Origin: a virus
Length of the DNA: 64,000 bases
Reading direction: 5' to 3' (one strand)
IMG/VR virus record: IMGVR_UViG_3300036818_000127
Span: 32,001-96,000 of that record
The stretch's first letter is position 1. Each line of letters starts with the position of its first letter. Positions 12,527-62,371 of this stretch are shown here, in pieces. The notes under the pieces were generated by a model. That model worked only from the letters and a program-made list of their open reading frames with translations. It was not told where the DNA came from and did not search any database. Position numbers and translations under genes: made by a program.

Positions 12527-13549
12527 ATGGAGGTACTCATGGAATATGAAGTTATCCCTGTTCATTCCACTCTTGACCAAGTTGGGCAAAGTGAGAATGT
12601 CATCTCAGCAAACAATGCTTTTAAGGACTATCATGACAGGATAGACCCAAATACTTTTGCACGTCAAAGTTATGACATGGCACTCTTTTGCGCATTTATT
12701 GCAAGCAAGAAAGTGCTAGTAGACAAAGATGAGCTATTATCCAGTCCCAGAGCATGGTTAGATATCACTCACGGAATGATTGACAGCTTTGCAAAATGGA
12801 TGATAGAAGAAGGCTTTGCTATAGGCTCAATAAATATACGTTTATCTACTGTAAAGACGTACTTCAAGCTTGCTTCTAGAGCAGGCTATATTCAACCTGA
12901 TGAAGCAGTAAAAGCCCATTTTGTAAAAGGGTACAGCTACAAGCAAGGGCTAAACGTTGATGAACGAAGGGAGATAAAGCGCAAGGATAAGAGCAAGAAA
13001 GCTGAGCCCATACCATTAACAAAAGAGCAAACGGATCTACTTAAAAAGCATCCAAATACACCACAAGGGCGACGTGATGCCTTGCTTATGTGCTTGCTCT
13101 TAGATCATGGTTTACGATGTGGGGAGGTTGCAGACCTTACACGTGCCAATATTCAACTTACCTCTGGAATACTTACCTTTCATAGGGAGAAAACCAAAGA
13201 AGAGGATAAGCATAAACTCACGAATGATACATTGGTTGCCCTCATGAGGTACTTTGAAGTCTACCATCCAACTGGCAAGCTCATAGCTGGCAGCCATAGG
13301 AGCGGCCAACTTATGGGGGAAATGAGCAGAAGAGCCATAACTAAGCGTGTACAAGTCTTAGGGGAGCAGATACTTGGGATAAAGAATCTCTCAGCGCATG
13401 ATTGCAGACACGCTTGGGTGGAAGCTGCCATACGAGGGGGAACCAATATCAAGACGCTCCAACAAGCGGGTGGCTGGTCAAGTCCCGCTATGCCACTGAG
13501 ATACGCCGCAAAGGCTGAAATTTCAAATGAAGGAGTAAAACTAGGATGA
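12527..13549 (+). CDS. tyrosine recombinase/integrase
   Basis: HGLRCGE, K, HDCRH, GW, catalytic Tyr in PLRY. Confidence 0.92.
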   Translation: MEVLMEYEVIPVHSTLDQVGQSENVISANNAFKDYHDRIDPNTFARQSYDMALFCAFIASKKVLVDKDELLSSPRAWLDITHGMIDSFAKWMIEEGFAIGSINIRLSTVKTYFKLASRAGYIQPDEAVKAHFVKGYSYKQGLNVDERREIKRKDKSKKAEPIPLTKEQTDLLKKHPNTPQGRRDALLMCLLLDHGLRCGEVADLTRANIQLTSGILTFHREKTKEEDKHKLTNDTLVALMRYFEVYHPTGKLIAGSHRSGQLMGEMSRRAITKRVQVLGEQILGIKNLSAHDCRHAWVEAAIRGGTNIKTLQQAGGWSSPAMPLRYAAKAEISNEGVKLG

Positions 13550-28397: not shown

Positions 28398-28679
28398 ATG
28401 ACTGGTCATGATTTAGCACAGGTTATCATTTGTATTCAGGAATGTAAGTCCCAGGGCATACGATGTGAGGTTACTCCCTCACTCGTCTTTGGGATGGCGA
28501 GTGTTATTGATCCAACAGTTACGATGGAGCAGTGCAAGGAAGCTATTGAAGTATCAGTACACGGCCATGAAGCAGAGTGGGACAAAAAGGTAGACGACGC
28601 TGAAAAAGCTGAGTATCAATCTTGGCTTGATAGAGGCGAGGCTGAATACGACAATACAAGCTGGTGGCGATACAGCTAG
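28398..28679 (+). CDS. hypothetical protein
   Basis: ORF. Confidence 0.55.
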   Translation: MTGHDLAQVIICIQECKSQGIRCEVTPSLVFGMASVIDPTVTMEQCKEAIEVSVHGHEAEWDKKVDDAEKAEYQSWLDRGEAEYDNTSWWRYS

Positions 28680-53829: not shown

Positions 53830-54030
53830 TTGAGAAAGCTACAAGTAAGTACTGAGTACCAGTACAAGTCTAACGGGAAAGAGTACTACAAGGTTTACAT
53901 GAGTAGGGCTGATGGATCAATGGTAAAAGGCACTCGAACACTTGGTGCCTTTACTGGATCAAAATTGAAGCAAGTCCAGAAGGATATGCAAGATAACATC
54001 AACCGTGGCGCTTGGAGCAATAGGGAGTAA
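53830..54030 (+). CDS. hypothetical basic protein
   Basis: AAGGAGG RBS, TTG start. Confidence 0.5.
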   Translation: MRKLQVSTEYQYKSNGKEYYKVYMSRADGSMVKGTRTLGAFTGSKLKQVQKDMQDNINRGAWSNRE

Positions 54031-54372
54031 GGAGTTTTGTTCTTATCTATCCCTTATCTGCTATAATTCTATATAATTTCCATATCTCGAACTGATTCTG
54101 GGAATGCTTACACCGCAAGAACGGGCACAGTTCGAGAGTGAGTTACAAGTCAGCATCAATCACTGGCTTGCTAAGAAGGCGATGTAATATGCTGAATGAC
54201 AGAGAAGAAGTTACGCCAGCAAAGGCATTAGATTATATCCTCCTTCTCATGGATCGAGTAAGGAAAGCACTTGACCTTCCTCAGCCTGAACGAATGATGG
54301 TCCTAGCAATCATGAATGACTGGATGAAAGAGGCTGTTGCGATGCTTGAAGCAGCAGTAGAACAGGAGAATA

Positions 54373-54675
54373 GTGATAGAGATGATAGCGCAAAATCGTG
54401 AAGAAGGTGGAAGGCTTGTTCGGCTGGCTTGGATACGCTGGGCCAAGCAGCAGCCTGACCCCAAGTTTTCCTGGCTCGTTGAGTGGGATGATCCTCGATT
54501 TCCAGAGGCAGACAGGGAGGCTGATCGACAGATTTGGGATGCAATTGTTGCCCCATACAATGAATCAGTTGTAGCTCTCATAGCTGAGAATCAGCAGCTA
54601 CGAAAGGACCTTGATAAAGCAATAGAAGCTCAGTATAGGCTAGAAAGATTGCTAGAGGAAAAGGATCAAGCATGA
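54373..54675 (+). CDS. hypothetical protein
   Basis: ORF in operon. Confidence 0.5.
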   Translation: MIEMIAQNREEGGRLVRLAWIRWAKQQPDPKFSWLVEWDDPRFPEADREADRQIWDAIVAPYNESVVALIAENQQLRKDLDKAIEAQYRLERLLEEKDQA

Positions 54676-55318: not shown

Positions 55319-56143
55319 ATGCCTGTTAAAAAAAGAACAAGAGTATGGACGTTCCTAATCCGCAAAGGGGGTTCGGGCAAAACAACATCTGCTGTGAACT
55401 TTGCGACAATACTTGCATGTATGCATAATCGCAAAGTCTGCTTAATCGACTTAGATCCACAGGGTAATTCCACTACCCACCTTGGGATTAACCCAGAGAT
55501 ACTTCCTACCTCAGTAAATACCCTCTTTACAGAGATTGGAGTTGACCCCCATTCTGTCGTGCAGCCTGTTTTGTTTACCGTCAGCAACAAGGGCTATTCA
55601 ATTGGTGTCATTCCTGCCAAGCGGGACCTAGATGAGACTGACCTCAGTATGAAGGCAACGCAGGTAGGGTTACTCAAGCCAATCATCGATGCACTCTCTG
55701 AAGATTGTGATGATATCGTGATTGATACGCGACCCACGCGGAGCATGCTGACTATTAGTGCTCTCATTCCAGCTACCCATGCCATCATCCCTATGGAAGC
55801 TGGCGTTTTTGCCCTAGATGCGCTCAAGGACACTGAGCAGGATATCAATAATGTGAGGCAAGGGCTTAATCCAGGATTGAAGCTCGTAGGTATTCTACCG
55901 ACGCGGGTACGTGAGAGCACAAATCTATCTAGGGTTATCTTAGGAGAGGCTGCGAAGGGATTTGATCATCTACTCATGCGCTACCAAGAGAAGGGAGAAT
56001 CGCGGTTACTCCTGATCCATGATAGCGTTCGTCTCGGTGAAGCTCCAGCCTATGGACTTCCTGGAATAGCCTACGACCCCAAGAGTCCAGCTGTGCAGGA
56101 TTACATCAAGTTCACGGAGGTACTCCATGCCCAAGAAACCTGA
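55319..56143 (+). CDS. parA: ParA/Soj family partition ATPase
   Basis: KGGSGKTT, IDLDPQGN, IDTRP. Confidence 0.93.
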   Translation: MPVKKRTRVWTFLIRKGGSGKTTSAVNFATILACMHNRKVCLIDLDPQGNSTTHLGINPEILPTSVNTLFTEIGVDPHSVVQPVLFTVSNKGYSIGVIPAKRDLDETDLSMKATQVGLLKPIIDALSEDCDDIVIDTRPTRSMLTISALIPATHAIIPMEAGVFALDALKDTEQDINNVRQGLNPGLKLVGILPTRVRESTNLSRVILGEAAKGFDHLLMRYQEKGESRLLLIHDSVRLGEAPAYGLPGIAYDPKSPAVQDYIKFTEVLHAQET

Positions 56144-57502: not shown

Positions 57503-58135
57503 TTAGAGCTTGTTTACAGGGCTGTTGACCATGGCATCATACTTTACTCCATCAAGGATACCAAGTTCGCGCTGAGGATCATAACGACCAGCTCTTGCAA
57601 TTCCATGATCATCCGTGTAAGAAATTAATATCCGTGTTCCTCTAGGCTCTACACCATTTATCTTATATGGTGGGTATGACCCACTGCTTATGTAGTCACC
57701 AGGAATTACCTGACTTGCTAGTTTCATGATCAAGCAAGCCTCTACTAGCCTCAAAGTCTCTTCTCTTTTCTGAGTGTCTTTGCCTATGGATACAACGTGA
57801 GAAGTAGGCGGTGCAAGCATGCTAACCGGATTGCAAGGAGTTAGTTGGATATTGAGTAGCTGACATCCTTGATCGAGATAATACTGCACCCAATACTTCT
57901 CACGTGTATATGCGGCATTCTTGCCATCATACACAATCTCTATGATCTCAAAAAGAGGTTCTAGTTCTAAAGCGGCAAGTTCCCGCATCCACGCATCTTT
58001 GCCCTGGTTAGTCCCATCTAAAATCTTGTGCCGATCAAACCTTGCATTAGGATTATTTGTCATCCCAACATACCTTGTGCACAGGACTATATCTGAGTTA
58101 CGGGGGTCTTTCCATCGGTAGATGAAGTGTATCAT
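57503..58135 (-). CDS. GIY-YIG nuclease domain protein
   Basis: FIY...DPR...YVGMT.NP.AR..RH, E..W. Confidence 0.75.
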   Translation of the reverse strand: MIHFIYRWKDPRNSDIVLCTRYVGMTNNPNARFDRHKILDGTNQGKDAWMRELAALELEPLFEIIEIVYDGKNAAYTREKYWVQYYLDQGCQLLNIQLTPCNPVSMLAPPTSHVVSIGKDTQKREETLRLVEACLIMKLASQVIPGDYISSGSYPPYKINGVEPRGTRILISYTDDHGIARAGRYDPQRELGILDGVKYDAMVNSPVNKL

Positions 58136-58158: not shown

Positions 58159-58971
58159 CTAGGCTTGCGCTTCTCGCAGAGCATCTTTATGATCCATTGC
58201 AAAATCTAATCCTGACATCTTTACATCAATGATAAAGTTGATATTCCCGCCTCCAGGTTCGATTTCAGTAAATCCAATGTGGCGCATTAGTCCGATCCCG
58301 TCTTTTGTATCAGATCTTGCTGCTAGCATGTTAACAGGTATGCCTCTTTGCCCGAGATTGACAATGTGTCTAAACATTCCTCGAATAAGGATACTTCCCC
58401 ATTTTCTTCTATTTGCTTTTGCTAACCCGATATCATTAGATGCCAAACCAAGCAACCATAAGTTAGCAGCCTTGCCTGTCTCAAAGGGAAGTACATCTTC
58501 AACATCAATCACTCCAAAGTTTTGACTTCTGTCCAGTTTAAGTAACCACCACATCTTCTCTTCTGTAATATTCAGGATGAAAATGCATCCTCTTACTTTT
58601 CCGCGACTATGTACGACAAAACATGATTCTGGATTTCTCTCCAGCCAAGCATTTCTTTTTGCTGAAGTATCATCCCCTCCCCATATTTTTCTAAGCAAGG
58701 CAACAATTTCAGGCATATCCTCTGGAGTTGCGGGGCGGAAAAGAGTAGGAAGGGCTTGATCTTCTGATTTCCGTTTCTCATCATTCCACTCTTTGATGAG
58801 CTTGTCGATATCATCTATCTTGTAGAAACCTTGCTTCTCTCCAGGTTCTACAAGACGCTCAATTTTCCCCTCTTTAACAAGGCCGCGAAGCCTACTATCA
58901 TTGATGTTTCCAAGTTTTCTTAGGGCTACGGCGGCTCTGCAATAGCCTTTGGGAGGTAGTCCTCTAGTCAT
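58159..58971 (-). CDS. HTH plus GNAT-fold protein
   Basis: N-terminal HTH, FRPATPEDM, G..LMRHIGFTE. Confidence 0.65.
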   Translation of the reverse strand: MTRGLPPKGYCRAAVALRKLGNINDSRLRGLVKEGKIERLVEPGEKQGFYKIDDIDKLIKEWNDEKRKSEDQALPTLFRPATPEDMPEIVALLRKIWGGDDTSAKRNAWLERNPESCFVVHSRGKVRGCIFILNITEEKMWWLLKLDRSQNFGVIDVEDVLPFETGKAANLWLLGLASNDIGLAKANRRKWGSILIRGMFRHIVNLGQRGIPVNMLAARSDTKDGIGLMRHIGFTEIEPGGGNINFIIDVKMSGLDFAMDHKDALREAQA

Positions 58972-59157
58972 TAGTGTGGCCGATCCTTTCTATGTATTAG
59001 CCCAATTGTACTTTAAAATTTGCAAGAAAGCAATCAATGAAGACTTGAAAAAATGAAAGATTGAAACCCTTGACAAACCTGATCCTATAAAGTATAATAA
59101 TTTTGTAGTTAAGGATTTTAAATAAAAGTCTTGTTTGAAAGTAAGGAGGCGATTTGT

Positions 59158-59388
59158 ATGGCAGTTGTAATGAACAGCCAGTTGCTCCTGCTTAGGAAGC
59201 AGTTGAAAGTATCAAGAGAAAAATTAGCACGGAGGACTGAATCGGTATCTTCTGGAACAATCAGAAATGCTGAGGAAGGTAAAAGGATAGTGGTCTCGAA
59301 TGCTAATCAGATACACCAAGCAATAAATGAGCTGCTTCAAGAAGCTGGCATGCAAAAAGTGGACACTTTAGGTTTATCTTTGTACTAA
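59158..59388 (+). CDS. XRE/Cro-like HTH protein
   Basis: LRKQLKVSREKLA...VSSGTIRNAEEG; divergent from 58971. Confidence 0.7.
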   Translation: MAVVMNSQLLLLRKQLKVSREKLARRTESVSSGTIRNAEEGKRIVVSNANQIHQAINELLQEAGMQKVDTLGLSLY

Positions 59389-59563: not shown

Positions 59564-59660
59564 GGGGATGATTGGTTTGACAAGCATGAACAGGGCCAAC
59601 CGTGTCACGGCGCTATCTAGAATTGCTTGACGGGGAGTTCAATTCTCTCCCATCTCCACC
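59564..59660 (+). ncRNA. miniature tmRNA-like RNA (tRNA-like domain with about 40 nt internal segment)
   Basis: GGGGAUG/CAUCUCC acceptor stem with G3-U, GGUUUGAC, AAGCA/UGCUU helix, GAC, GGGGAG-UUCAAUU-CUCUCC T arm, ACC end. Confidence 0.75.
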
Positions 59661-59711
59661 GATGACAATGTTATGTCATCAATACTTATAGTGAGCAGAA
59701 AGGTACAATAT

Positions 59712-61663: not shown

Positions 61664-62371
61664 ATGAGCGCAAAGTTTCGGAATGTCGGCCCTGAGTCGG
61701 CAATGCCTGGAGGAGGCTCTGAGAATGGTCATTTTGACCCACGAGCCACCCACAAATTTACTGTAGATGAAGAGGAGGGCACCCTGGACAACATGGCCTA
61801 TGAGGGTGCTGCTGCCCAAAATCCGATGGTGAAACTGGTCATCGGATTTGCTCAGGTCATATGGGGATGTATCTCGAACTGTATTCAGGTTGCCACATCC
61901 AGTATGGCATGGCTGTCTATGATCACGGCACAGCCTGCATTTAATAACATCCCTGACTTTCTCATGTCTCCGTTTGCATGGAAAGTCACAATTGCACTTG
62001 TGATGGGCATTGCACCTCAAGTGTTGTTGCATATGCACAGCCAGCCTATCACGGATACCTGGATGCGACTGAAAAACATGCAGAATTTTCGGGTTAAGGC
62101 ATTCAGTAGCAAGATAGAAGTCAAGAAGGTGCTTAATGCGCGAGCATTCCTGGGCTATGTTGGTCTCGGAGCGGATGTAGTGAGTGATGCCACATTCGTC
62201 AATCTCTTCACGGAAAACATTCTTGCGATCATCTTCTGGATGTTTGTCCTTACTGGATGCAGCACCATCTGTATGTACGACGGTGCGAATAAGGTATGGG
62301 GCGCATTCGAGGATTACAGGGATTATAAGCATTATCATAATATGCATGATCCTAAGAAGGAGAAGCAATAA
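61664..62371 (+). CDS. multi-pass membrane protein
   Basis: About 4 hydrophobic segments. Confidence 0.65.
   Translation: MSAKFRNVGPESAMPGGGSENGHFDPRATHKFTVDEEEGTLDNMAYEGAAAQNPMVKLVIGFAQVIWGCISNCIQVATSSMAWLSMITAQPAFNNIPDFLMSPFAWKVTIALVMGIAPQVLLHMHSQPITDTWMRLKNMQNFRVKAFSSKIEVKKVLNARAFLGYVGLGADVVSDATFVNLFTENILAIIFWMFVLTGCSTICMYDGANKVWGAFEDYRDYKHYHNMHDPKKEKQ

Follow-up and report, generated by a model that had tools for sequence, protein, structure and literature searches.

An uncultured phage carries, at positions 59564-59660 of the plus strand of the window analysed here, a 97-nt gene for a miniature tmRNA (hereafter the mini-tmRNA), the presence of which is confirmed by the reading of its sequence. 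The window is a stretch of 64,000 nt that corresponds to bases 32001-96000 of a 109,417-bp IMG/VR virus record, which CheckV rates as complete. We consider it probable that this is a real phage gene for a structurally divergent TLD-only (CDS-less) tmRNA of the DS6A type, and that its product competes with the host tmRNA or stands in for it. Trans-translation is the main ribosome-rescue path of bacteria and a drug target. By its features, the mini-tmRNA is a divergent member of a class of phage tmRNAs that has already been published, and not a new kind of RNA. The high novelty implied by the initial annotation of this DNA must be given up, since RNAs of this kind have been published (DS6A) and are widespread in viral contigs. 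Taken alone, the mini-tmRNA is an ordinary, somewhat divergent member of its class. The literature that we found names a single phage TLD-only tmRNA, that of DS6A, and our scans show that the class is common and that its alanine elements are invariant. The class also exists in a geometry with a 13-bp acceptor/T arm, matching a subset of bacterial tmRNAs, which suggests a mimicry matched to the host, and a TLD-only tmRNA can occur by itself, in a phage devoid of tRNA genes.

Anatomy and recognition of the mini-tmRNA

The anatomy of the mini-tmRNA can be followed letter by letter on the plus strand, and all the parts that had been described are found in their places, with both ends of a tmRNA present and paired to each other. 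The 5' strand of the acceptor stem (GGGGAUG, 59564-59570) pairs over its whole length (7/7) with the 3' strand (59651-59657), the third pair being G-U. It is followed by a stem-less D-loop analogue of 10 nt (59571-59580), which contains GG and ends in UUGA where UCGA is usual. Next comes helix 2, whose 5' strand (59581-59586) forms 6/6 pairs with its 3' strand (59624-59629) in both the MFE and the centroid folds; this helix had been presented as AAGCA/UGCUU, and it is indeed present, but with six pairs where five had been counted. The interior that separates the two strands (59587-59623) has the length of about 37 nt that had been announced, exactly 37 nt, and takes the place of the pseudoknots and of the tag region; fold prediction puts in it a hairpin with a 4-bp stem (59600-59610) and 3 outer pairs. 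An AC linker (59630-59631; the family described below usually has GAC after the closing G) leads to the T arm (59632-59650), which is made of a 6-bp stem (GGGGAG/CUCUCC) and a 7-nt loop (UUCAAUU). The sixth pair of this stem was missing from the initial annotation, and ARAGORN, when relaxed, draws the extra C as a bulge. The 3' end (59658-59661) consists of the discriminator A73 (59658), CC and then a G (59661), the terminal A of CCA not being encoded. The acceptor stem with its G3-U pair, the D-loop analogue, the T arm and the ACCG end had all been noticed from the start and are borne out. All 19 pairs of the three helices are intact (19/19), the T-loop consensus, G3:U70 and A73 are kept, and the 7 bp of the acceptor stem together with the 6 bp of the T stem give an acceptor/T helix of 13 bp. 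The G3:U70 pair is an alanine identity element.

Several searches single out this locus. A degenerate TLD pattern has one match in the window and none in 100 shuffles (0/100). The Rfam tmRNA model (RF00023) matches both ends with 37 bits (E 1.2e-14 for this genome), and its alignment skips the whole middle of the model, which supports the initial description of a miniature tmRNA without the pseudoknot ring. The comparison with tmRNA models that had been proposed as a check has a mixed outcome: the match at both ends speaks for the RNA, but its score is lower than the gathering score of 47, and ARAGORN is silent at this place, both with its defaults and with tmRNA thresholds lowered to 50-70%. 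At thresholds of 70-80%, this program yields only forced, poor cloverleafs with a bulged C. A covariance model made from ten gapless 80-nt members of the family, termed R1 and built without the mini-tmRNA, gives it 37.6 bits (E ~6e-6), and this is its only match in the whole 109-kb genome. The fold energy is unremarkable and no better than that of shuffles (z = -1.14).

Two other assignments were considered for this RNA. A tRNA (RF00005), whether intron-containing or long-armed, was rejected, as there is neither a D arm nor an anticodon arm with a 7-nt anticodon loop, no call by default and nothing beyond the forced cloverleafs; the best match in the Rfam tRNA clan is tRNA-Sec, with 15.3 bits and an E value of 4.2. 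A canonical tmRNA (RF00023) was rejected as well, the 37 nt between the strands of helix 2 holding no pseudoknots and no credible mRNA-like domain. The search with the Rfam mt-tmRNA model (RF02544) left the mini-tmRNA unmatched and returned only weak chance matches elsewhere in the genome.

A family of TLD-only RNAs and its full-length bacterial relatives

The mini-tmRNA belongs to a family that can be collected from viral contigs with simple patterns. The first one separates the 5' GAC from the T loop by 35-65 nt, imposes beyond this loop the spacing of the mini-tmRNA itself, and gave three analogues that are convincing (L006, L007 and L009). The second one, identical except for a canonical spacing, found at least 120 loci. 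Together, they give at least 100 matches with perfect acceptor and T stems, 85 of which are unique among the matches listed and most of which measure 77-84 nt. The TLD-only class is common in uncultured phages. ARAGORN calls none of these RNAs from viral contigs a tmRNA, and they are likely to be unannotated in most phage records because this program misses them. The Rfam gathering score for tmRNA is passed by 8 of the 9 family loci tested (48-75 bits), the ninth (L006) being unmatched; five of these eight adjoin tRNA genes. In the set of 85, a tRNA gene is found within 2 kb of a third of the members with a 5-bp T stem, versus 1/15 of those with a 6-bp one, so that standing alone is normal for such RNAs. 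No protein family is conserved beside them across the 85 loci, the largest cluster being limited to 8 loci and without an informative match in Pfam.

The family covaries. When the 85 members are aligned to R1, 98.2% of the cells are paired, and the covariation score reaches 0.715, compared with 0.151 for shuffles and no more than 0.104 for slid controls; it must be kept in mind that the members had been selected on their acceptor and T stems and that the alignment follows the model. Helix 2 played no part in the selection, and 5 of its 6 pairs show double changes in the same alignment.

Within the family, the mini-tmRNA stands at the edge. It has the lowest R1 score among the 85 members listed. 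Its interior of 37 nt compares with 13-28 nt in most of the family and is exceeded in only 4 of the 85 members listed. Its D-loop analogue, with a U for the usual C, is shorter than the norm at 10 nt and lies within the family range of 9-15 nt; a U or an A replaces this C in other members too. Compared with the family norm, its linker lacks one base and its T stem has one additional pair. One of the features by which membership was judged is a D-loop analogue with GG and a (U)CGAC end that leads straight into helix 2, the closing C-G pair of which adjoins the GAC linker; it is found here in a variant form (UUGAC end, AC linker), and others have similar variants. A common motif can be seen in the interior of the RNAs of about 80 nt (viral contigs L012-L131 and L261-L320), namely an A-rich run, CC and a tiny hairpin. 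The interior of the mini-tmRNA does not have the A-rich/CC motif in register and is not conserved in any other member.

Searches by plain similarity add little to those made by pattern. An exact 18-mer of the 5' end of the mini-tmRNA has only two matches in viral contigs, both by chance and inside coding sequence, and blastn of the locus and of the mini-tmRNA against 50,697 phage records returned no match. When a family member was compared with phages by blastn, the matches were confined to the 3' ends of phage tmRNAs, either full-length or permuted, namely those of Bongo, where the match is the annotated tmRNA, and of Pseudomonas phage SM1. In the latter, we noticed an unannotated permuted two-piece tmRNA (L133:1418-1809, or about 54019-54410 of NC_041877), which scores 111 bits with the beta_tmRNA model and 118.6 bits with tmRNA_permuted and sits in a 1.4-kb stretch without any annotated feature.

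The alanine elements were examined with a third pattern, anchored on the end of the D-loop, the GGAC linker and the T arm, and placing no constraint on the acceptor stem. Among its matches, 76 unique RNAs have 6 or more acceptor pairs. G3:U70 is found in 76/76 of them and A73 also in 76/76, neither being imposed by the pattern, while the acceptor pairs 4:69 to 7:66 vary with compensation. CCA is encoded in 64 of the 76 and is absent from the other 12, as it is from the mini-tmRNA. The invariance of G3:U70 and A73 beside covarying pairs 4 to 7 points to selection for aminoacylation, and not for the binding of SmpB alone; such an absolute conservation would be hard to explain if charging were irrelevant.

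The T stem of 6 bp is also a recurrent feature. Viral and metagenome contigs supplied 23 unique short RNAs that have it, the mini-tmRNA included, with a Watson-Crick sixth pair in all 23 (GC in 17, CG in 3 and AU in 3). The scan of metagenome contigs also caught, by their 3' parts, full-length bacterial tmRNAs of the same T-arm geometry. Rfam scores of 109-171 bits were obtained for seven of these, five of which receive ordinary tags from ARAGORN; the full-length tmRNAs noted for combining ordinary tags with this T stem are L206:6909-7282, L144:983-1356, L175:3114-3476, L154:5563-5916 and L225:2847-3199. The acceptor stem of L206, L144 and L175 is identical to that of the mini-tmRNA, and the T arm is almost identical in two of them. 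The 13-bp acceptor/T helix is, to judge from these tmRNAs, a working natural variant, and the mini-tmRNA has the look of a tRNA-like domain copied from a tmRNA of this type. A mimicry of the host tmRNA would fit, because full-length tmRNAs with the same acceptor stem and a nearly identical 6-bp T arm exist, and the mini-tmRNA is likely to have arisen from a host-type tmRNA through an internal deletion. As for the contigs themselves, Infernal models the extra T-stem pair of the bacterial tmRNAs as insertions, and L206 is a high-GC contig with urease genes. In another contig (L217:1-1218, minus strand), a match to a eukaryote-type LSU rRNA (412 bits) overlaps a tmRNA match (152 bits), which may reflect a chimeric assembly or an artefact of the models.

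The locus and the phage that carries it

The two ends of the phage genome have 127 bp in common. Among its genes are those for a family-A DNA polymerase, a primase/helicase, a large helicase, a DNA methyltransferase, a ParA-like protein and a terminase-like ATPase. ARAGORN finds no tRNA gene in the whole genome, and the mini-tmRNA is its sole tRNA-like gene; the rest of the genome holds no second copy of it and no Rfam family at gathering score. Genes for SmpB, a CCA-adding enzyme, a release factor or ArfB, and Pth were looked for in the phage and none was found, so that the mini-tmRNA would have to be served by factors of the host.

A sigma-70 promoter of perfect consensus (59070-59098, plus strand; 12/12 matches and a 17-nt spacer) lies upstream, and neither a closer promoter-like site nor a terminator-like site is found between it and the mini-tmRNA. 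It is the likely source of the transcript. A small gene for an HTH protein (Cro/repressor-like; 59131-59388, plus strand), recognized through weak HTH_3 and phrog_3 matches, stands between the two and is probably co-transcribed with the mini-tmRNA: the promoter upstream and the lack of a terminator before the mini-tmRNA make co-transcription followed by processing plausible. Directly 3' of the mini-tmRNA, a 6-bp hairpin or palindrome can be read on the plus strand (59662-59679), which could be a signal for 3' processing or an operator.

On the other side of the promoter, and divergent from the unit formed by the HTH gene and the mini-tmRNA, is a gene of 270 aa (58159-58971, minus strand; the region between is 58972-59130). 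The layout of this gene and the HTH gene resembles that of an immunity-switch region. The metagenome homologs of the 270-aa protein have 75-58% identity; two of them are labelled as from a Ktedonobacteraceae MAG and one as 'N-acetyltransferase YhbS'. Searches for related loci with the neighbour proteins as single-sequence queries gave nothing, and an alignment of the 270-aa protein gave three viral loci that share that gene alone, are not syntenic and have no mini-tmRNA. As one of them (L255, 60% identity, not syntenic) shares only this gene, the latter seems to move independently of its neighbours. Two bacterial loci obtained with the same alignment were uninformative on the host.

Other elements of the genome bear on the lifestyle of the phage. 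Its only tyrosine recombinase (12527-13549, plus strand) is 46 kb away from the mini-tmRNA, and no serine recombinase was found in the phage. A GIY-YIG endonuclease (57503-58135, minus strand) and a ParA-like partition protein (55319-56143, plus strand) are encoded nearer, and these two, the lone tyrosine recombinase and the short terminal repeat are a hint of a plasmid-like prophage lifestyle. At 740 nt downstream of the mini-tmRNA, we found a complete HEARO RNA, the omega RNA of IscB (Rfam RF02033; 60399-60682, plus strand; 102.9 bits versus a gathering score of 83). It is followed by no ORF of the size of IscB, those up to the ATPase gene at 62184 being of only 44-237 aa, and it has the appearance of an orphan guide-RNA scaffold. 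Two further copies of the first 11 nt of the mini-tmRNA lie 72 nt apart in a CRISPR-like repeat field (window positions 733 and 805, minus strand), probably by chance; genome-wide, 10 eleven-mers are shared versus 4.6 expected.

What the mini-tmRNA may do, and how it compares with known RNAs

The reading that we prefer builds on a published precedent. The tmRNA of Mycobacterium phage DS6A was listed as 'TLD only' by Hudson, Lau and Williams in 2014 (PMC4131195), and the tmRNA database of 2025, in which nine of 97,179 sequences are 'Standard, no CDS', repeats this result (PMC11915505). Full-text literature searches for phage mini-tmRNAs returned DS6A alone. According to the account of Mao et al. 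2009 given in PMC4131195, a similar molecule, and not the present RNA, strongly inhibits tmRNA in E. coli whether it can be charged or not, perhaps by titrating SmpB. The idea of an SmpB/EF-Tu decoy that blocks trans-translation, raised in the initial annotation, is in fact the one put forward in the literature for the TLD-only tmRNA of DS6A, as conveyed by that same account (PMC4131195, citing Mao et al. 2009).

In the phage studied here, the mini-tmRNA would be transcribed early, along with the small HTH gene, from the promoter at 59070-59098, and then cut out by the RNase P of the host and its 3' trimming enzymes, its 3' end being completed by the host CCA-adding enzyme. It would be charged with alanine by the host AlaRS, through G3:U70 and A73, and would bind the SmpB of the host and probably EF-Tu, as the tRNA-like domain of the host tmRNA does. 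Devoid of pseudoknots, of a credible resume site and of a tag, it could not add a degradation tag. Its net effect would then be either a competition with the host tmRNA that suppresses tagging and degradation, or a rescue of stalled ribosomes without tagging. The stronger proposal, according to which phage mini-tmRNAs are charged, tag-less ribosome-rescue RNAs and not mere SmpB sponges, is one that we hold only tentatively and judge rather unlikely. The alanyl-TLD and host SmpB would in that case enter the stalled ribosome and take over the nascent chain, which would be released untagged; in this way the phage would both recycle ribosomes and protect truncated products of its own. The geometry of each mini-RNA would correspond to that of the tmRNA of its host, here the 13-bp acceptor/T helix.

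The main competitor of a functional TLD-only tmRNA is a decaying or non-functional remnant, in which the gene of a TLD-only or full-length phage tmRNA has lost its function and is drifting. The position of the mini-tmRNA at the bottom of the R1 scores of the 85 members listed, its Rfam score under the gathering score, the silence of ARAGORN, the shortened D-loop analogue and linker, the lack of the A-rich/CC motif in register and the CCG in place of CCA would all agree with it. Drift would nonetheless break first what is intact here, namely the 19/19 pairs, the T-loop consensus, G3:U70 and A73, and each odd feature recurs in other members or in working bacterial tmRNAs, so that we regard a remnant as improbable. 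Still less probable is another functional RNA, such as a decoy, an antisense RNA or a guide, lodged in the 37-nt interior, with the tRNA-like part as its scaffold. Such a design would suit a genome in which RNA-guided elements abound and the HEARO RNA is a near neighbour, and the interior is unusually long and has its own hairpin; but nothing significantly identical or complementary to the interior is present elsewhere in the phage genome, no other member conserves it, and the TLD features suffice to explain the presence of the RNA.

A working minimal tmRNA, which would tag proteins through the open frame of 11 residues and a stop at 59595-59630 (plus strand), is very unlikely. The frame does read ANRVTALSRIA-stop, as the initial annotation had it, begins with Ala-Asn like many tags and ends with Ala, and the interior is long enough for it only here and in a few other members. 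As a tag, however, it is not significant (P ~0.18): when shuffled interiors were scored for an Ala-initiated frame of at least 11 codons ending before the T loop, 18% gave one at least as long, and we judge it a chance feature. Its stop codon is a product of the junction between helix 2 and the GAC linker. Just 8 nt lie between helix 2 and the putative resume codon, the context upstream of which is unusual, and a pseudoknot is lacking. Translation of the frame would moreover open helix 2 as far as the T arm, the peptide ends in RIA without a hydrophobic LAA-type tail, and most members of the family, whose interiors are typically of 13-28 nt, have no room for a tag. The related suggestion of a rescue RNA with an altered tag falls for the same reasons: a frame at chance level, a structural stop, 8 nt before the resume codon and no pseudoknot. 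The last alternative, an attP sequence or the scar of an integration into the host ssrA, is largely refuted and hardly credible. An att site reproduces no more of ssrA than its 3' part, while both ends are present and paired in the mini-tmRNA. It is true that ssrA is a common integration site (PMC4131195) and that the phage has one tyrosine recombinase. The latter is nevertheless encoded 46 kb away, and the same architecture is found in at least 100 unrelated phage contigs, with a tRNA gene within 2 kb in about 1/3 of those with a 5-bp T stem. The initial annotation had named a deleted ssrA or att remnant as what would overturn its reading; with the integrase so far off, the att sense of this does not apply, and what survives of it is the likely origin by internal deletion.

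A structurally divergent TLD-only phage tmRNA can finally be set beside the RNAs that it resembles. The CDS-less tmRNAs of organelles (the jakobid mt-tmRNA, RF02544, and those of Mallomonadaceae plastids, PMC11915505) are also reduced and without a tag frame, and they are thought still to act with SmpB; unlike the mini-tmRNA, the mt-tmRNA is mostly two-piece and permuted, these RNAs are not viral, and RF02544 misses the mini-tmRNA. The canonical ssrA (RF00023; L206, L144 and L175) has a D-loop analogue and a junction of helix 2 with GAC of the same type, whereas the mini-tmRNA lacks about 270 nt of it (PK1-4, the resume codon, the tag frame and helix 5); the former score 109-171 bits versus 37 and are found by ARAGORN with normal tags, and the latter is not. 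The closest known RNA remains that of DS6A, which lies in an unannotated gap of NC_023744 (about 28478-28560), has the layout of the family and is the top sequence outside the training set of R1, with 63.8 bits against the 37.6 bits of the mini-tmRNA. It is of about 80 nt versus 97 nt, with an interior of about 18 nt versus 37 nt, and the mini-tmRNA differs from it by an interior without the A-rich/CCGC motif in register, a T stem of 6 bp versus 5 and a D-loop that ends in UUGA versus UCGA. Both are encoded by a phage without an SmpB of its own and do not encode CCA (DS6A ends in ACTA). Both are one-piece and non-permuted RNAs with little beyond the tRNA-like domain, free of pseudoknots and tag, and they share the 7-bp acceptor stem with G3:U70 and A73, the D-loop analogue, helix 2 and the T arm.
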